A stretch of 64,000 nucleotides of DNA from IMG/VR virus record IMGVR_UViG_3300031994_000100; one strand, written 5' to 3'. Below the pieces are notes generated by a model, which searched no databases, was not told the DNA's origin, and saw only the letters and a list, made by a program, of their open reading frames with translations. Positions 6,842 through 40,359 of this stretch are shown here, piece after piece. This stretch comes from an uncultured virus (IMG/VR IMGVR_UViG_3300031994_000100) (Duplodnaviria; Heunggongvirae; Uroviricota; Caudoviricetes). Each line of letters begins with the position of its first letter. Position 1 is the first letter of the stretch. Position numbers and translations under genes: made by a program.

Positions 6842-7143
6842 GCGTCTTCTTTGTCTTCCTGCTCAAAGCTGGCCAGTTCGCCACCGCAGGCCGCGTAGCC
6901 TGCCAGATCGATCCAGCTGTCCTCGGAATAATTTCCGCTGGCGATGCGGGCGATCTTCAGCAGGGCCATCATCGCCGCCACGTCGCTCGGCGCCAGAGGG
7001 CGGCTGATCGCAGGTCCGAGATATGCGTTCCACATCATCCCGATCCGGCGAAAGTTGTCCTCCGGCTTGCCATAACTCTTCTCCCGGTCCCCGTTCACAA
7101 TGCTGCTTGCTTTTTCCAAAATCGTCTTGCGTAAAGTCGCCAT
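6838..7143 (-). CDS. DUF6378-like phage protein
   Basis: IVNGDREKSYGKPEDNF, LKIARI and DSWIDLAGYAACG pattern; start taken at ATG 7143. Confidence 0.7.
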   Translation of the reverse strand: MATLRKTILEKASSIVNGDREKSYGKPEDNFRRIGMMWNAYLGPAISRPLAPSDVAAMMALLKIARIASGNYSEDSWIDLAGYAACGGELASFEQEDKEDA

Positions 7144-7147
7144 GCTC

Positions 7148-10100
7148 TTACTCAACTTTCTCCTCCTCAACGTCAAGGTTACGGAATACCTCAATGTCTC
7201 CGTACTGTGAAATATCACGGATCGCATCATCCACCAGCCGGTCAAAGTAACGACGGTCAATTGCGTCCTCCATCTTAAGGTTTCCGACAGTCTCGGATTC
7301 CAGCCACCGCTGATCCTTGGTGCCGACTACCGCGTCATACTTGTTTCCGTTCTTCCGCATCAGCCAGCCGCCGCCTCGTCCAGGCAGAATCGGACAGAAT
7401 GCTCCGGCCTTTCCGACAAAGACGTAGTGATGCCCCTTCGCGATCTCTTCCTGAAGAATCCGATAATCCTCCTTCAGATCCTCCAGCTCGGCGATGCACT
7501 TCAGCGCATCCTCTTCTGAAATAGAATACTTTCCGCTCAGATCCTTCTGCGGCTCGGCGATCCACTGGTCGTAGCTTCCGTCATAACCGATGGCCTTCAG
7601 CAGCTCGCCCGTTCGCTTCAGCATCCGGTCCAGATCCCGCTCGCTCATGCTTACATCGGGCAGTTCCTCGTTCATGTCCAGATACATGTTGGTCGTCACG
7701 GTCTTTGTCTGGCACAGATCCTTGAACTCGATCGGCTCCCGCGTAAACAGCGTCTTCTTGACATACGGCTCGGCAAACTGTGCCCCGGTCGTGTTCCACT
7801 CTCCGGCATGCTTACCGCTTTGCACATGGGCAACGTACACCGCGTTGTTCACCAGGCACATCCGGTCATAAACGCTCTCCAGTTCAAAATTGTAGCCGTA
7901 GAGCTTGCCGTAATCCATCACGAACTGAATAATCTCAGGTGTCGCGTTGGGAATCTTGATGGAGTCCGTCTTGATGTGAGCCACCGTGAATCCCTTCTTC
8001 TGCACCAGATGCTTCAGATTCACCATGAATAAAGCCCCGCGCTTGGCCACAATGTTATCCTTGTTCCGCTTATCACGGAAGGGGTTGTCAAACTTGGCGC
8101 TGGTCAGGCCGTATACGCTGTTGATTGCAATCTTCAGCGCTGTGCTCAGGTTGTCGGCCTCTTCCTTCTGCTTCTCCTCGCTCAGCTTCTCAAAGCCTTC
8201 CAGGAATGGTGCCAGCTTGCCATCCAGAATCTGCCGGGCCTTCTCCCATTCCCGGTGCTTGATCAGAATCCGGGCGTCGAGAATATCCTTGAACCGTGCC
8301 GTGTACTCGGGCCCAAAGAGCTCCTCGGCCACGATGCTGCTGGGGTGCATGCTCGCAATATCCAGCAATGCCACGTTCCAGTACATACCCGGCTCTGCAT
8401 ACACATACCCGCCTTCGCCGACCTCTTCACCGCGGTAGATGCTCTTCCCGTGGTCAAAGGTGTATCCGGGGAAGTATGGTTTGCCATCCTTGAATACCGT
8501 GTACTCGGGATCCTCATCCATCGGCAGTGAGTAGGTCTCGGTGCCGTTCATCTCGCCCATAAAACGATAATTGAACGTAGCCTGAGGCTTCTTCTCCCAT
8601 CCGAAGATGATCTTCTGTGTCAGCTGATTGGTGGTGGCGTTCGGGTTCAGCCCTGCCAATCGGGCCAGAATTTTCCTCGCCCGCCAGTCCTCCTGCCTCT
8701 TGTTGAATACCGCTTCCGTCGCAAACACGTCGTTGTCACAGTATTCGGCCACCTTCATCCATAGGCTCTCGTCTACCGGCTCATCCCACGGGAGGCCAAG
8801 CTCCTGGTGGTGAATTCCCAGCTCGATTTCCCACTTCTTCAGGCTCTGCTTCTTGCTGCAGAAGTCGTACACATCCGTATAGCTCAGGTCATACGCCTTT
8901 CCGAAGAAGGCATCCGGGCTTCCGCCTACAATTCGCTGACTCAGCTCGTACAGCTCCAGGTTGCTCTTGCCAAGGTACCTTGCATACACAATGTGGTTGT
9001 CGTACCGCCGGCAGTTGAACCCAACCAGCTTCAGGTGAATAAACTCCTCCAGATCCTGCGGCTTCGGGTTGATCATCCGGTGGCATTTCGGTTCGCCAGC
9101 AAACTTCCAGTTGATCAGGAACAGATTCGGAAAGACTTCCACGTCAAAGAAGGCAATCTTATCTTCATCTGCAACCACGCCGTCGTCCTCCTCCTTCGGA
9201 TCCTCGACATCGTCGCTATGGAATATCATTTTGTTTACCTTCTTCAGACAGTAATCCGCCTGATGTGAGCTGTTAGCCGCGAACAACATTACCTTCTTTT
9301 TCATTTCACGCACGTCGAAATGCCGCCCGCTCTTATAGAACTCCTCCAAATCCTTGGCGATCAGATCGATGCTCTGCCTCGTGCTCGGCAGAATCTCCTT
9401 TCTAAGATTCTTCTTAATCATGTTAAGAAGCATCTTGTCGTCCTTGATGGTTTCAAAGTCGACCACTTTTTCCTCCTTCAGCGGAAGTCCGCTTGAAATG
9501 TGTGCCAGCGGAAGGTTGTTGCACAGGCTGAGCCTCCTCCTCAGACTGTTTCCGCCGGTGGTTGCCTTAATCTCGATGCCAGGAGAATAAACCGATTTCA
9601 GCTTGCTCTGGTCTCCGTCGTAGTAATACTCAAGGTGGATTCCGGATCCGCCCTTTGAATACTCGGCGTAGGTCGGTGTCCACTTCGAAGCCGCTTCGAT
9701 GTTCTTCTCGGCGCTCTTCTTTCCGGTCTCGTCGGTCAGATCAAAGTCGACCGAGATGATTCCCATGGATTCGGGAATGTTGACATAATGTGTCCGCTTC
9801 GTGTCCAGGTCCTTCAGCGTCTTCTTAGCGTTAACCCAGGAGACATAAGGCCCTTCTGTGTCGTCACGGGCATACTGCGCCGGGCAGTCTTTCAGCAGCT
9901 CATCGAACAGGCTCTCCGTCTGGTCCAGCGTCAGCCAGCAGGCCTTAGCCTTCTCCTGGTCCGCCTTCGCTTTCTCCGGTTCGCCGCCATCGTCAATTTT
10001 CTCGTGTTTAAATCCGCTGAACCAGCTCCGAACCTGCTTGCCGTCCACACGGGTAATTGGCTCAAAGTTCTTAAAATAGTTCTTCAGCTCTTCCCGGAAC

Positions 10101-23250: not shown

Positions 23251-23607
23251 TCAAAGTTCCTCCTTTTCCGTGTCTGCCAAAAACTGCATAATTCTCCCAA
23301 CAGCTCTGCTTGCGCAGTCATACCTCGTAAGTAAAGTTTCGCGGGTCCAGCCAACTTTCTCGCCGTTGTCTATTTTTTGGATCAGATCGTTGCAAATGTC
23401 GGCTTCTTTTTCCTGCCAGGCCAATTCGGCCGACAAAGCCCGTTTGTAGGCGTCGTCACTTACGTCGATTATATGTTCTTCTCCAAGCCAGTCGATCATT
23501 CGAAGCCGTGTGTTAATATCCGACATGCCGATTGTCTGAAAGGCTTTGTACCACACATCATAGAATTTCTCGTCTGACAGGGTTCCGAGCCATTCTTTGT
23601 TTGTCAT
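23251..23607 (-). CDS. hypothetical protein
   Basis: Coupled ORF. Confidence 0.55.
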   Translation of the reverse strand: MTNKEWLGTLSDEKFYDVWYKAFQTIGMSDINTRLRMIDWLGEEHIIDVSDDAYKRALSAELAWQEKEADICNDLIQKIDNGEKVGWTRETLLTRYDCASRAVGRIMQFLADTEKEEL

Positions 23608-24701
23608 AGTTTCTCCATTCTGTCCTTCTGGTCGGACACATAAACGCCGCTTGCAAACTCGGGAATGACGATATCCTCCCGGCCGTTGACTGTGTCGAGC
23701 TTTCCGTCCGTATAGTTCAGCTGGGTGAACACGAGGTTGATCTTCGGATCGATGCGGAAGAGCGAAGCGTCATCCTTAATACGTCCGTACAAGTGGTCAA
23801 GGTCAAGTTTGCCGAATCGAAGAGCTCCCTGAAACTCGTTTTCTCCGTTTGTCGTATCAACAATATCGGGATTGATCTCCGCTTTTTCGCATTCCGCCTC
23901 CATCGGTCCCGCACCGTGGCGCGTGGCATAACTTCGGGATACGTAGAACAGCTCCGGATTCTCTCCGGCCGCGTAATCAGAGAGATGGTATGCCAGATCA
24001 TGAATATAGTCGCTGCCAGTGCAGGAAGGCGTCAGATGTGGATAGGAGTCTATGTTATTCTGACTCAGCATCAGCCCCTGGCCGCCTTCGAATATCATTC
24101 GGTCATAGTTTTTCTCCTGAATAAGTTCGTAAATGTACCTGATTTTGCAATGCTTCATGATCCACTGTCTGGCAGCCAGAAGCATTTCTGCGTTATAGAT
24201 CTCGTCGACAAACGGGCCATATTTCTTTTCGACTGCGAGGAGTTTCGGCATGAGTGCCTGTTCATGGTCAACAAGATCCTTGATCCGAATATCGTATCGT
24301 CCTCCCTGCTTTGACCGCTGAACTGCCTCGTACAGTCCGAATCCGCAGGATCCGTGTCGTTCGTTTCCGCGTTCCCGCTCTTTTTTCCGGTTTGTAATTA
24401 CATCGCAGGGAAGAATTACGCGGCACATCGGGTCGATAATCGGTGTGGCTTGTGTAATCAGGAGTGAAATCGGATCCACCACGAATCGATGATGATAATA
24501 GGTGTCCGATCCGTATTTGGTTCCGGCGGCCATGCACCGGTGGACCTCTCCTTCAAATGTATGCGCTCTCTGGGATGTACCATTGTAAAATACCGTCAGA
24601 ACTTTTTCATTTGAAAGGGATGCCTCACGAGCGAGACATCCCGAAACCAGACCCTTACCTTCATCGCCGTAGTTGGCTCCGATCACTGCCTGAATTTTCA
24701 C
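23604..24701 (-). CDS. divergent adenylosuccinate synthetase-like protein
   Basis: GANYGDEGKG, HGSCGFG, FEGGQGLML, YPHLTPS and TRHGAGP. Confidence 0.8.
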   Translation of the reverse strand: MKIQAVIGANYGDEGKGLVSGCLAREASLSNEKVLTVFYNGTSQRAHTFEGEVHRCMAAGTKYGSDTYYHHRFVVDPISLLITQATPIIDPMCRVILPCDVITNRKKERERGNERHGSCGFGLYEAVQRSKQGGRYDIRIKDLVDHEQALMPKLLAVEKKYGPFVDEIYNAEMLLAARQWIMKHCKIRYIYELIQEKNYDRMIFEGGQGLMLSQNNIDSYPHLTPSCTGSDYIHDLAYHLSDYAAGENPELFYVSRSYATRHGAGPMEAECEKAEINPDIVDTTNGENEFQGALRFGKLDLDHLYGRIKDDASLFRIDPKINLVFTQLNYTDGKLDTVNGREDIVIPEFASGVYVSDQKDRMEKL

Positions 24702-27308: not shown

Positions 27309-27448
27309 TTTCGCTTCACCGCCCGTATTAAAGTGTTATTTTAGTTTCAGCCCCGTTTCCGGGGCGATGCTACTGAAACGGGTCATTAACATCGTAATAT
27401 TTCCCGGTCATTTTATATCACCCCTTTCACGATGTAATAAGGTGTTAT

Positions 27449-27823
27449 TTAAATCGTTTTAATTGCTTGAACTATGTAATCGACAACTTCTTTTACTTGC
27501 TGAACTGTCCAAGTAACATTATCAAATGTTGCTGTTTTAGCTATAAGCATTTCAATACTAGTTGATTTTCCTGGAAGAAAGATCGACAATACGATCATAA
27601 GTAATCCAAGGATTCCAGCTATGATAGCCCATTTTTTAAATATTTTCATATAACACTCATTTCTCCTATATACTTCTACTTGATACACATTATACATCCA
27701 TCCAATTGTCAAGCCAACGAAAGTAGCTATGCATACTCCGCCTAAAATTCCAAAAACAGTTTGTGCAATACTTAAAACGTTAATCCAATAAAAGACTTGT
27801 GGGGCAATAATGTAGTTTGTCAT
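27449..27823 (-). CDS. membrane protein (AT-rich block)
   Basis: Two TM segments; stop overlaps a TTAAATAACAC site. Confidence 0.65.
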   Translation of the reverse strand: MTNYIIAPQVFYWINVLSIAQTVFGILGGVCIATFVGLTIGWMYNVYQVEVYRRNECYMKIFKKWAIIAGILGLLMIVLSIFLPGKSTSIEMLIAKTATFDNVTWTVQQVKEVVDYIVQAIKTI

Positions 27824-28239: not shown

Positions 28240-28350
28240 TGGCTGCGCCGGTGAGGATTTGCACCTCACAGTTCGAGATGGACGTGGGCCTGACGTCTCG
28301 AATCACTCCCACTGCTTTGCCATTGCGTTTACCTATTCCGCCACGGCGCA
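28240..28350 (-). ncRNA. tRNA-like RNA 1 (no canonical anticodon arm)
   Basis: 7-bp acceptor TGCGCCG/CGGCGCA + GCCA; D-arm GCGGAATAGGTAAACGC; T-arm GTGAGG-TGCAAAT-CCTCAC. Confidence 0.7.
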
Positions 28351-28419
28351 TGGATTAAGTGTTATTTCGAAAAAGAAATGAGAGTCCGCCAAATAGCGGA
28401 ACTCTCGTCCCGGTTCGTC

Positions 28420-37170: not shown

Positions 37171-37658
37171 GCGGCAGCACCTCCCATCAGTTTAGCCACG
37201 ACTTCTTCAACCGTGTTGTTCACCCAGCTCCATGAACGGGTTTTGCGGTCATACTTAGATCCGTAGACGACCCTGTACTGCCCGTTAATGAACAGGCAGA
37301 CACAGTTGGCAACGATCGGATCAGACGGAAGCCCGTCGCCGTGGCGGCGCTTCGGTTCGGGAAGATGCCGGCACTGGCACTGGATGTACTTCAGATCCGG
37401 ATTCCTCTTCTGGCTGGTGTACCAGTTCCAGTGATCTGAAAAGCGAAAAGACATCTCCGGTTTGCTGTGATAGGTCACCTGATCCGAAGTTCCTTTCGGG
37501 CAGAGATACATCGAGCATTCCCCGTGCCGGATTTTGCTCGCCATTGCTTCGTAATCGCCCTTCAGCGCTTCAGCCAGGTCAATGAAGAACTGTCTGCAGA
37601 GCTCCTTTTCCTCGTTCCGAAGATAAGCCCAGTACGGATCATGGCTGAGGATCTTCAT
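37167..37658 (-). CDS. hypothetical protein
   Basis: SFRFSDHWNWY motif; AAGGAG RBS. Confidence 0.6.
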   Translation of the reverse strand: MKILSHDPYWAYLRNEEKELCRQFFIDLAEALKGDYEAMASKIRHGECSMYLCPKGTSDQVTYHSKPEMSFRFSDHWNWYTSQKRNPDLKYIQCQCRHLPEPKRRHGDGLPSDPIVANCVCLFINGQYRVVYGSKYDRKTRSWSWVNNTVEEVVAKLMGGAAA

Positions 37659-37674
37659 GCTTTTCGCTCCTTTC

Positions 37675-38715
37675 TTATTTCGTCTGGATGAGCTCGACGA
37701 ACCGGTTCGTATCCCAGCTGCGGATCACGTTGTCTCCACCTGGAAACCGCAATCTGTCATCCGAAACAATCAGGTTCGCATCCTGAGGCCGGTCCACTAG
37801 CTGCACGGCCGAAGCCTTAAGCAGGTCGTAGACATTGAACACCTCGGTTACATTGAGCTTGTCGAGAATAAACGTCAGATCTGTATTACCGGCAACAGCA
37901 TGCCGTCCCTTGCGGGCCATATTCAGCCATACCATCTCCATGGTCTCCAGGTCGATGGCGAACAGATAGCTGAAGGTGCTGTCCGCGTTGAGAATATAAC
38001 TGGTCTGAACCGTCTTCGGCTCGTAGATCTCGCCGCTGCTGACCTCATCCCGCAGCATGAAGCCAGCCCTTGCCACGCAGGTCTTGAAGGTAACGTTCGT
38101 ACTATAGATATTGTCGCAGAAGACAAGATAGCGGAATCCCTCATACTCGTACTTGAATGCAGAGATGTCGATGTCGAAGTATTCGCTTCCGCCCTTATAG
38201 CCGGACGTCTCATCTCCGGAATAAACGACCGCACCACTCTGCTGACGCCACATATTCCGCCAGCTGAACTCATGCGTCTCGCCGTCAGTCGACATGGCAA
38301 AGCAGCTGAGGTCGATGTCGTGCACCTTTTCCCAGTAGGTAAACGCCCGTACGACCTTCCCATTCGGGATCGGAATCCGGCTGCCGGTAGTAAGCGTGCC
38401 GTATCCGCCGTCGCCCGTGTCCGCGTTCAGCGGAACGGCCAGGCGCTTAAGCTGCTCCGGATCCTCGATCCATACACGCCCGAGCCGGCCCAGAAGGCTA
38501 TCCTCCAGAAGCCCGCGCAGCTCTTTTTCTGCGGTTTCGCGTACTGTCTTTGGCACAAAGGATTTCCGGCGCCGGGCCTCGTCCTCCGTCTCCTTATGCA
38601 CCCGCAGCCTGTTGTTTTTGGTAAAGGCGAATGAACGAGGGGCACCCGGGGTTACCCGATAGTTGTGGTAGTGCATCAGCATCTGAAGCAGAATGATCGG
38701 ATTCACTTTAGACAT
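37675..38715 (-). CDS. TerD-like domain protein (C-terminal partner of a split pair)
   Basis: HDIDLSC, YSGDETSG, GSEYFDIDI and AGFMLR resemble TerD-fold motifs; own AAGGAGG RBS. Confidence 0.6.
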   Translation of the reverse strand: MSKVNPIILLQMLMHYHNYRVTPGAPRSFAFTKNNRLRVHKETEDEARRRKSFVPKTVRETAEKELRGLLEDSLLGRLGRVWIEDPEQLKRLAVPLNADTGDGGYGTLTTGSRIPIPNGKVVRAFTYWEKVHDIDLSCFAMSTDGETHEFSWRNMWRQQSGAVVYSGDETSGYKGGSEYFDIDISAFKYEYEGFRYLVFCDNIYSTNVTFKTCVARAGFMLRDEVSSGEIYEPKTVQTSYILNADSTFSYLFAIDLETMEMVWLNMARKGRHAVAGNTDLTFILDKLNVTEVFNVYDLLKASAVQLVDRPQDANLIVSDDRLRFPGGDNVIRSWDTNRFVELIQTK

Positions 38716-39758
38716 GCGAGTACCTCCTTCACTTCTTCGTCCGTGTTACACCGGCTGAGAATATAATCCAGATTGCGGATCAGCGCGCTGGTTCCTTTCG
38801 ACGCGGCAAGATGCGCGGCCGCCTCTACTGGAACGCCCCTGCGCATCTGCCGTTCGAACCCGCTCATGGAAGAGCCGTTGGGGATCCCATCGTCGCGCAT
38901 CATCCTGACCATCCGTTCGCCGATGGTACTGCGTGGCTTGTAGTGGACGTGATGCAGCAGTCCTTTCCAGATTTGCCGCTTTTCGAACATATTTTCAAGC
39001 TCACGGTACACGTGTTCGGACTTGAACAGGTAATCCAGCACCCGTGTGATGAGCTTTCGGTCCTGGTTCTTCAGGTTGAGCTTGTTCAGATCCTCGCTGC
39101 CATACTGGCTGTACTGAATGTACTCAACCAGCTTGATCACGTCCGTAATTGTGATGTAATTAGCAAACAGCATACTCTTCGTATCATAGAGAAGCCGGAT
39201 CGCCGTCTTTTTGCAGGGAATAGTCTTGGGAATAATCTCCTCGTGGAAGTCGTCCCATCCCTGCCGGACAATCGCATAATTGCTTTCGCTCAGCGGCCTG
39301 GAGCCCTTCAGCATGGACTGGATCTCCGCAACCATCGTGACGTTGGCGGTTTTCTCGTCCACAATGGTGAATATCTTCGGCTCAACGTTTTCTTCGAAGG
39401 CGATCCGCTCGAAGTTTTCCTCAAACAGGGAATGCTCGGGGGAGTCAAAATTGCCGAGTCCGTAGGTGCTGAAATAGTGCAGCAACTGATCATACAACAG
39501 CTGCTCCGGCGTAAGCTGCCGCACCGTATCCGGGAATCCGCGGTAAAAAGGCTCGGGAACGTATTCTCCGAGATACTCCGCGGCAACTGGAAGCATGCAC
39601 GGATGCGCCAGCTTATCGCTGTTGACAATCCGAATGCCGAATTTGCGAGCCAGCGTGAAGAGCGTGGCAAAGACCTCGTCCGGACCGATCACGCCTGCGT
39701 CATCCGGCTTCACCAGGACGTTCTTGCTGAAAAGATACTGCACGTAAAGCTTTTTCAT
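38703..39758 (-). CDS. alpha-helical protein, N-terminal partner of the TerD-like gene
   Basis: PFYRGFP, QLLHYFSTYG and LIRNLDYILSR; start ATG 39758 after GAGGAGG; 13-bp overlap with the next gene. Confidence 0.65.
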   Translation of the reverse strand: MKKLYVQYLFSKNVLVKPDDAGVIGPDEVFATLFTLARKFGIRIVNSDKLAHPCMLPVAAEYLGEYVPEPFYRGFPDTVRQLTPEQLLYDQLLHYFSTYGLGNFDSPEHSLFEENFERIAFEENVEPKIFTIVDEKTANVTMVAEIQSMLKGSRPLSESNYAIVRQGWDDFHEEIIPKTIPCKKTAIRLLYDTKSMLFANYITITDVIKLVEYIQYSQYGSEDLNKLNLKNQDRKLITRVLDYLFKSEHVYRELENMFEKRQIWKGLLHHVHYKPRSTIGERMVRMMRDDGIPNGSSMSGFERQMRRGVPVEAAAHLAASKGTSALIRNLDYILSRCNTDEEVKEVLACLK

Positions 39759-39778
39759 TTTTCTTTCCTCCTCATTAA

Positions 39779-40131
39779 TTCGATAGTGCGGGGCTTGTTT
39801 CAATTGCCGTGAAGAAGTAAGCCCCGTTAGCTGAAAAAAGAAGAACGGCGAAGATAGTTCCGAACTGTTTATCTGCTATAAAAGAAGTAAGCCCGGATAG
39901 CTTTCGCCTTGGGGAGACCGCGGAGATAGATCAGAACTGTCATGTTCATTTTTCATATATTTGTAGTAAGTTCTGATAGCTTCCGCGGAAGTAATGTGAG
40001 GGAGGATAGTTCTAAACTGCTTATCCAAAATAAAAGAAGTAAGCCTGGATAGCTCTCCCTCCGGGTGTGGCCGAAAGCGCGCCGCTGCCTTTTATCAATG
40101 TTTAAGAGAAGTAAGCGGCGTTAGCTGGCCA
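39779..40131 (-). ncRNA. tandem array of five structured hairpin RNAs
   Basis: Units 39779-39835, 39847-39908, 39918-39988, 39998-40061 and 40068-40131 share AGCTAW..TTACT(T/A)C..CA(A)G..CTWTC with different but paired stems. Confidence 0.8.
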
Positions 40132-40150
40132 AAGCAAAATATAATTCAGT

Positions 40151-40303
40151 TATGCGGGTGAGGATTTGCACCTCACATAAAGAGCATTTCAACGGCCAAC
40201 TAGAGACAACAGGTGGCAACGTGCCGTAGCTCTTCTTAGAAGATAAGACGTATGTCATATCAACCGGCATAGTGTAAGCGTCTACCTGTTCCGCCACCGC
40301 ATA
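40151..40303 (-). ncRNA. tRNA-like RNA 2 with about 95-nt central insertion
   Basis: Acceptor TATGCGG/CCGCATA; D-arm GCGGAACAGGTAGACGC; T-arm identical to RNA 1. Confidence 0.7.
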
Positions 40304-40312
40304 ATGTCTTAT

Positions 40313-40359
40313 TTTAAATCGTTTTAATTGCTTGAACTATGAAATCGACAACTTCTTTT
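40313..40359 (-). repeat. 47-bp orphan copy of the 3' end of gene 27449..27823
   Basis: Matches 27448-27494 with one mismatch. Confidence 0.85.

Follow-up and report, generated by a model that had tools for sequence, protein, structure and literature searches.

A 64,000-nt stretch of DNA from an uncultured virus of the Caudoviricetes (IMG/VR record IMGVR_UViG_3300031994_000100; the whole stretch is hereafter the window) carries on its minus strand a tandem array of five hairpin RNA units, followed by two genes that encode the halves of one helical, TerD-containing protein. We propose, with a probability of about 0.72, that the units are Y-class RNAs bound through their AGCUA box by a Ro60-like ring and act in gating or tethering during RNA repair or decay, with TerD as the sensor. 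Such an RNA-protein particle, unstudied so far, would probably deal with damaged or attacked RNA.

Five related hairpin units precede the gene pair

Scanning the window for the core AGCTAW-N-TTACTWC, we found starts at 40126, 40054, 39981, 39902 and 39832 on the minus strand, and the core is absent elsewhere in the 64 kb on either strand. A covariance model (R1) was built from 76 plain units of other genomes, picked from 313 by insert length and <80% identity. On the whole window it gave exactly five matches up to E 1, all on the minus strand, at 39-53.7 bits (calibration was short and the E-values are rough). The five minus-strand hairpins of the original prediction, which was made from the sequence alone, were thus recovered with units from other genomes. 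The units and the adjoining ribosome-binding site are as follows.

40066..40133, minus: unit 1 (most 5'), plain Y-like hairpin RNA; R1 45.5 bits, E 2.5e-8
39998..40061, minus: unit 2; R1 39.0 bits, E 8.5e-7
39918..39988, minus: unit 3; R1 42.6 bits, E 1.2e-7
39846..39909, minus: unit 4, then a U-rich tract; R1 53.7 bits, E 3e-10
39775..39839, minus: unit 5, weak outer stem; R1 41.8 bits, E 1.8e-7
39767..39773, minus: Shine-Dalgarno sequence of the first gene, 8 nt before the ATG at 39758 (from sequence)

On its 5' side each unit has an outer stem, AGCUA, a 7-nt stem plus U, and UACUUC (UACUAC in unit 3); on its 3' side follow an AU-rich loop of ~18-25 nt, A plus the stem partner, a 6-nt box and the outer stem. 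As predicted, the inner stems vary in sequence and keep pairing, with 6 or 7 of 7 positions paired; that of unit 2 has two G-U pairs and one C-A mismatch. The outer stem had been described for every unit; that of unit 5 has only ~3 pairs. The last unit does end a few bases before the Shine-Dalgarno sequence, as noted originally.

G-U pairs had also been taken as a sign that structure and orientation are selected. Within the window, the five inner stems hold 4 G-U versus 3 A-C cells and 3/5 units have a lower folding energy on the plus strand; hence, the window leaves orientation unsettled. At the family level, we used 129 distinct units of 310 motif hits, anchored by motif on both sides with pairing not demanded, and found that 94% of inner-stem cells are paired versus 64.5% with partners swapped, with mutual information maximal on the diagonal. 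Among the listed pair types of these units (at most 8 types listed per position), there are ~94 G-U/U-G versus ~11 A-C/C-A cells. Hence, the family settles the orientation. In the 76-unit alignment, which was pre-selected for pairing, double changes occur in 7/8 pairs (201 cells versus 55 shuffled), and RNAalifold recovered both stems.

These data bear on two other readings. A reading without any RNA function, in which the units are repeats at the DNA level, terminators or an artefact of assembly, would fit the U-rich tracts behind some units and a single terminator-like prediction on the plus strand inside unit 1; compensatory changes, the G-U bias, the constancy of only the boxes among units, a gap-free DNA contig and contigs from RNA libraries (both described below) leave this reading with next to no probability. 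A CRISPR- or TIGR-like guide array, and with it the guide role suggested originally, is without support: there is no constant repeat with unique spacers, and the stems vary and covary (loop targets were not searched).

The scaffold is shared with RNAs beside canonical Ro60

As a control, we took 7 TROVE loci from 401 Bacillota genomes; the 4 proteins tested all match both TROVE and vWA_Ro60, and Rsr is matched by one at E 7e-21. Upstream of 5/7 of these Ro60 loci (two identical) lie RNAs in which the outer stem is followed by a CGYYA-like box of 5 nt, an inner stem as long as that of the array units and UACUUC, and whose inserts are plain (23 nt), branched or permuted-tRNA (81-83 nt). Scaffold and spacing are those of the array units; the boxes differ and R1 gives no match. 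Our strongest argument is that the same scaffold and spacing stand beside canonical Ro60; hence, we regard the array as a Y RNA subfamily and not a mere analogue. From sequence, the RNA scaffold looks homologous to that of Y RNAs.

Rfam gave no match to the window at threshold and nothing of note by E-value. The canonical Ro60-linked RNAs of Bacillota themselves reach 39.9 bits on RF02553 (YrlA/YrlB) in 2/7 loci, and the others (among L399-L404) are missed. Hence, Rfam undercounts Bacillota Ro60 Y RNAs, since their scores fall below the YrlA threshold or they are missed. The branch described here also suggests that Pfam TROVE and Rfam YrlA count too few Ro60-like systems. The original statement that this is not a described family therefore applies to the Rfam catalogue, the RNA class itself being known; the units probably form an uncatalogued branch of Y RNAs.

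Among the 313 related units, 71 have a T arm, a closed acceptor hairpin and a D arm in that order, 38 have a T arm only and 192 are plain. None of the five units in the window has the permuted tRNA domain. Viral contigs were also scanned with a 14-base motif; of the 115 matches listed, which look like chance hits, 10 pass a loose stem filter and none of these is unit-like, and the scan leaves the exclusivity of the motif untouched.

The two genes encode halves of one protein with a TerD domain and a putative Ro60-like ring

38703..39758, minus: N-half gene, 351 aa; the N-terminal domain together with the greater part of the helices that resemble the Ro60 ring (from fused relatives and fold)
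37675..38715, minus: C-half gene, 346 aa; last ring-like helices, TerD domain and C-terminal tail

Among proteins of 616-2000 aa, we found 785 fused relatives of the ORF at 38703-39758, ~680 aa long. The two window ORFs align to the two halves of this form, with the N-half corresponding to residues 1-~340. Thirteen other representatives (<50% identity) end at the same EVLxCLx-like position as the N-half (two further rows of this alignment, a longer form and a fused reference, were set aside), and 49 C-half proteins, picked from 186 hits, begin at the matching methionine. The C-half gene has its own Shine-Dalgarno sequence at 38722-38729 and its start overlaps the N-half stop; the same overlap, with a Shine-Dalgarno sequence before the second start, occurs in 4 loci, all phage, of 175 homologue loci (the best 80 of 335 genome hits, 15/15 viral hits and the best 80 of 244 metagenome hits). 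A DNA contig, possibly from the source sample, matches 37519-40179 without gaps. A frameshift or assembly error behind the split is rejected on the recurrent split position, the matching starts and the repeated overlap. Complex prediction gave weak support for binding of the two halves (0.38 versus 0.00), which says little because binding is expected for the halves of a split gene. The helical and TerD-like genes noted originally are two halves of one protein family, not separate proteins.

The best whole-length fold matches are Ro60 rings, and 3/3 Ro60 structures aligned collinearly over the whole helical part, with modest fold scores. Foldseek with the helical part listed no Ro60 among its matches, and an ESM Atlas search, made with a poor model and reaching scores under 0.8, gave no useful information. 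The TerD domain is clear by fold and occupies residues 451-618. A vWA profile gave no match; the full-length Ro60 alignment extends to residue 682 and may thus include a vWA remnant. Conserved basic residues lie within the helical region. Pfam gave no significant family on either half, PHROGs only an unnamed family for the C-half, and TROVE (PF05731) had no sequence match in the protein family, with HHalign also negative.

Convergence, in which the protein would be unrelated to Ro60, the Y-like layout independent and the task a different one such as Ter-type stress signalling, draws on this missing sequence link, on the modest fold scores and on the clear TerD domain. Identical spacing and the UACUUC element in RNAs beside canonical Ro60, together with the collinear alignment of all three Ro60 structures, make it very improbable.

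Units and gene occur together in genomes and phages

At least 400 nt of upstream sequence is available in 154/175 loci, and a unit lies within 800 nt in 142 of these 154; the co-occurrence of RNA and gene homologues anticipated by the original prediction is thus confirmed. The 12 misses include 2 with a longer-stem unit and 2-3 with detached arrays. The model matched 15 places in five whole genomes, each of them at the gene (with 150 candidates scored in each bacterial genome), and PF05731 is absent in 5/5 carrier genomes. Within a single family, for which 151 genomes were scanned with 33 candidates scored in each, RNA and protein matches coincide in 3, one of which is the seed genome and one of which has gene fragments only; TROVE matches were zero. 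In one contig (G111 contig C278; L396, L397), the array is kept with only two protein gene fragments, ~2.8 kb downstream.

Distant homologues (21-29% identity) occur in cultured phages. By pattern and eye, we found 2-6 units with a stem and a U(A/C)CUUC-type element adjoining the gene in Weasels2, RcXuper, WXIN, LpeD, XacN1 and S-CRM01. These arrays (loci L309-L313 and L315, plus L314) are unannotated, their boxes are lineage-specific and R1 scores them at <=18.7 bits; on RF02553, RcXuper reaches 40.7 and S-CRM01 35.9 bits. The RcXuper array (L310) directly follows a permuted tmRNA.

The position of the units bears on a multi-site autoregulatory leader, in which the protein would bind its own 5' hairpins to control translation or termination and the RNAs would have no role in trans. 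The last unit ends <=25 nt from the start codon in 60/142 loci, at least 4 U follow 49/146 last units versus 20/167 others, and in the window folding predicts that the Shine-Dalgarno sequence is paired with the U-rich stretch 5' of unit 5 (unpaired probability of its seven bases 0.01-0.50). Against this, the gap exceeds 60 nt in 41/142 loci, the array follows the gene in L018 and phage Weasels2, in L047 and L055 it lies 2-2.7 kb upstream, the permuted tRNA domains (71/313) would be needless, and the same scaffold is a Y RNA beside canonical Ro60. Because some arrays are downstream or distant, the leader offered originally is weakened as the main role and we consider it unlikely; feedback could be a side role of unit 5.

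Phage loci are rich in units (3-6 units in 13/15), which would also suit a decoy display, in which the ring holds mimics of the tRNA elbow, T arm or anticodon loop, or plain loops, and thereby sequesters or blocks nucleases and toxins of the host that target tRNA; its role would then be counter-defence and not RNA quality control. An anticodon-like stem-loop is found in 43/242 distinct inserts (commonest triplets UUU, GUU, GUC and UAA) versus a mean of 9.2 and a maximum of 19 in shuffles, which were mononucleotide only, and the genes often lie among tRNAs (at least two beside the gene in 22/175 loci). In addition, excerpts of bioRxiv 10.1101/2024.10.10.617714 report that Bas63 gp130, a Ro60-like phage protein, countered the ppl defence system. 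No anticodon-like stem-loop or other mimic was found in the five window loops, and the sampled hosts are mostly bacterial genomes and not phages; we judge decoy display quite improbable. Y-class RNAs with a Ro60-like partner remain our preferred reading.

Of the genes that neighbour the 175 loci, which are not independent, those seen most often encode a metallophosphoesterase (14 loci), RtcB (12) and a protein resembling RNase H (11); the ter operon is not among the common neighbours. Directly downstream of a split gene pair in L081, positions 7100-8640 hold dense tRNAs and long tRNA-like or unexplained structured RNAs. Gene callers run some homologues into the RNA array, a permuted tRNA domain then appearing as a false N-terminal extension (P0102, 70 residues).

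Expression and the upstream tRNA-like RNA

40313..40359, minus: 47-nt promoter-like repeat; second copy ~27448-27494
40150..40303, minus: tRNA-Leu-shaped RNA; a 101-nt insert replaces the anticodon and variable arms

Among the matches listed, RNA-library contigs from two metatranscriptome studies cover 39823-40122 (300 nt, depth 12) and 39873-40118 (246 nt, depth 7). Both are mismatch-free and strandless and span several units, and DNA carry-over is possible. Both end inside unit 1 (at 40118 and 40122) where the DNA contig continues, a weak hint of an RNA end. Coding flanks are almost uncovered in two RNA runs; the contigs cannot rank expression. We found no sigma-70 consensus site between 40360 and the array, and the 47-nt repeat at 40313-40359 is a candidate phage promoter. 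The two copies are near-identical, one preceding the tRNA-like RNA and the other a small ORF, and similar stretches occur in other DNA-run contigs. In relatives, 70/144 loci have a hexamer resembling a -10 box at a distance of 8-36 nt upstream of the first unit, versus 24/167 for later units. In L086, L087 and L091, a minimal HDV-like (theta-type) ribozyme-like sequence, identified by pattern and eye and with no Rfam match at threshold, lies ~340-400 nt upstream of the gene and ~60 nt before the first unit; it may process the array transcript.

The tRNA-like RNA noted originally just upstream is present, with acceptor, D and T arms kept and the insert between the D and T arms. No cloverleaf with an anticodon arm was found, ARAGORN reported 0 genes at 40150-40303, and Rfam likewise made no call. 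A second tRNA-Leu-shaped RNA (~28244-28351, minus) carries an insert of unrelated sequence where the anticodon arm would be. The T arm and acceptor recur exactly in 78 viral loci with unrelated inserts; such RNAs are widespread in gut phages and have relatives in RNA libraries. Among 68 distinct copies elsewhere, none has a unit within 700 nt downstream, and L367 carries a near-identical insert with the array absent. Hence, the tRNA-like RNA belongs to a separate dispersed family and is ruled out as a regular part of the system. It may share the array transcript, and by analogy could give the array its 5' end through tRNA-type processing.

Setting of the array

The window is phage DNA: a scan of 31 ORFs found DNA polymerase/primase, helicase, integrase, tail fibre, endolysin and RNA ligase families, and nearly all long ORFs lie, like the array, on the minus strand. 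Sequencing runs with 96-99% of the window's words are sheep gut metagenomes, two of them marked as possible sources. A single-sequence search with the locus in viral contigs gave no match, and the nearest virus record does not span the array region. A large protein at 542-3595 matches a PHROG named RNA-dependent RNA polymerase and is possibly the phage's own RNA polymerase. The ORF at 23604-24701 (minus) matches the PHROG 2-aminooxy adenylosuccinate synthetase (PurZ-like; E 3.9e-40), and the phage DNA may contain a modified purine.

Proposed mechanism and its significance

We propose that the five units would all belong to one divergent subfamily of Y RNAs and that the two genes behind them would make the partner, a non-canonical Ro60 in which TerD replaces the recognisable vWA domain. 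As in YrlA/YrlB and Yrn1/Yrn2, a single precursor transcript of the array would be processed into RNAs of 60-70 nt. Each RNA, if it behaves as Y RNAs do, would dock on the outside of the helical ring by means of its AGCUA box and the stems on either side. The variable loop would face away as the effector end, which in relatives is a permuted tRNA, a T arm or an anticodon-like stem-loop and in the window a plain loop rich in A and U, and would tether a nuclease or repair enzyme or gate the entry of damaged RNA to the ring. TerD would contribute sensing of a metal or small ligand, and the two halves would be translationally coupled and form one ring. In the phage, the most likely purpose would be to protect or clear RNA under host nuclease attack. 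The original suggestion that the RNAs are ligands of the downstream helical and TerD-like proteins, in loose analogy to Ro60/Y RNA, is supported and strengthened by the Y RNA scaffold, the Ro60-ring fold matches and the co-occurrence.

A broader and doubtful extension is that gut Bacillota and large phages of several phyla share a second, parallel Ro/Y system: a TerD-gated ring with swappable RNA cargoes (tRNA elbow, T arm, anticodon or plain loops) on a constant handle, lineage-specific boxes co-evolving with the protein, used by phages as an RNA-based counter-defence or repair platform, whose two-gene form splits binding from sensing.

We found no RNA linked to a TROVE-like/TerD protein in the literature searched, which left out supplements (Chen 2014, RNA-motif catalogues) as well as Burroughs and Aravind 2016 and Anantharaman et al. 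2012, which may treat the protein. What is new in the window is that the protein occurs naturally as two genes, that all five units of the array are plain, that RNA libraries cover the array and that its scaffold directly matches that of Y RNAs linked to Ro60. The branch bears on the role of the tRNA-like and plain Y RNA domains and on the reason for Ro60 in phages; excerpts of PMC4201824 state the interactors of bacterial Y RNA domains as unknown. This branch offers hundreds of natural variants with a constant handle and differing cargoes, and a partner whose vWA domain is apparently replaced by a sensing domain and whose two-piece form separates the parts. The related arrays in the six cultured phages make binding, processing and counter-defence testable.

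Comparison with known systems

YrlA is laid out as T arm, closed acceptor stem and D arm, a permuted tRNA (excerpts of Chen et al. 2014, PMC4201824, and of the structure paper bioRxiv 10.1101/312249), and YrlB and Yrn2 are described in the former excerpts as plain hairpins processed from shared precursors, with Deinococcus radiodurans Yrn2 co-transcribed with a tRNA. As in YrlA/YrlB (RF02553), several RNAs stand in a row on the same strand as the adjacent protein gene, each with an end-paired stem and internal loop (the outer stem of unit 5 being weak). One permuted-tRNA member beside plain hairpins is likewise seen in relatives (71/313), not in the window, whose units correspond to the plain type of YrlB and Yrn2. 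Unlike YrlA/YrlB, this family has up to six units. The RF02553 threshold is 69 bits; a permuted-tRNA relative in L012 reaches 47 and the window gives no match.

The YUAY element of Y RNAs (PMC4201824, excerpts) is present as UUAC in all five window units; its frequency in relatives is no test because UUAY was in the search pattern. The motif GNCGAAN0-1G, which bacterial Y RNAs have near the 5' end, is also departed from by the Ro60-linked RNAs of Bacillota, with their CGYYA-like box. It occurs in 2/313 related units, the array box being AGCUA/RAUAUC, conserved on both strands; by eye, its letters occur in the window in unit 4 only, within the paired outer stem. Bacterial Y RNAs are defined as lying <=4 kb from a Ro60 orthologue on the same strand, and the array adjoins a Ro60-like protein that lacks a PF05731 match.

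In Ro60/Rsr (PF05731 plus vWA_Ro60 PF25045; PDB 1yvp, 2nvo), Y-like RNAs likewise lie upstream, likewise in phages, and our predicted helical region aligns along the whole ring. Phage phiLo has a Ro60 with Yrl1/Yrl2 (PDB 9l5y; PMC12135203), and excerpts of PMC7824862 mention, in general terms, ROT/TROVE proteins with tRNA-like partners in jumbo phages. Unlike Ro60, the window protein has no detectable sequence similarity to it, has ~120 extra N-terminal residues and TerD in the vWA place, and is ~680 aa long or split into two genes after EVLxCLx.

NF041916 (MXAN_6230/SCO0854 RING-domain) matches the protein along its later helices and TerD, with E values of 1e-34 to 6e-23 in five fused proteins and of 3e-25 in the window C-half. 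These matches reach 80-120 bits versus a cut-off of 600 and leave the first ~380 profile positions unmatched, so that none is whole-length or includes the RING. No RNA partner for this family is described in the literature searched. Such proteins are described under Pfam Prok-RING_4 (PF14447) as combining helical and ROT/TROVE-like repeats with TerD and as possibly having a role in RNA processing. Compared with TerD/SCP2 stress proteins (PDB 2qz7, 2kxt), TerD is here a domain of a larger RNA-associated protein.
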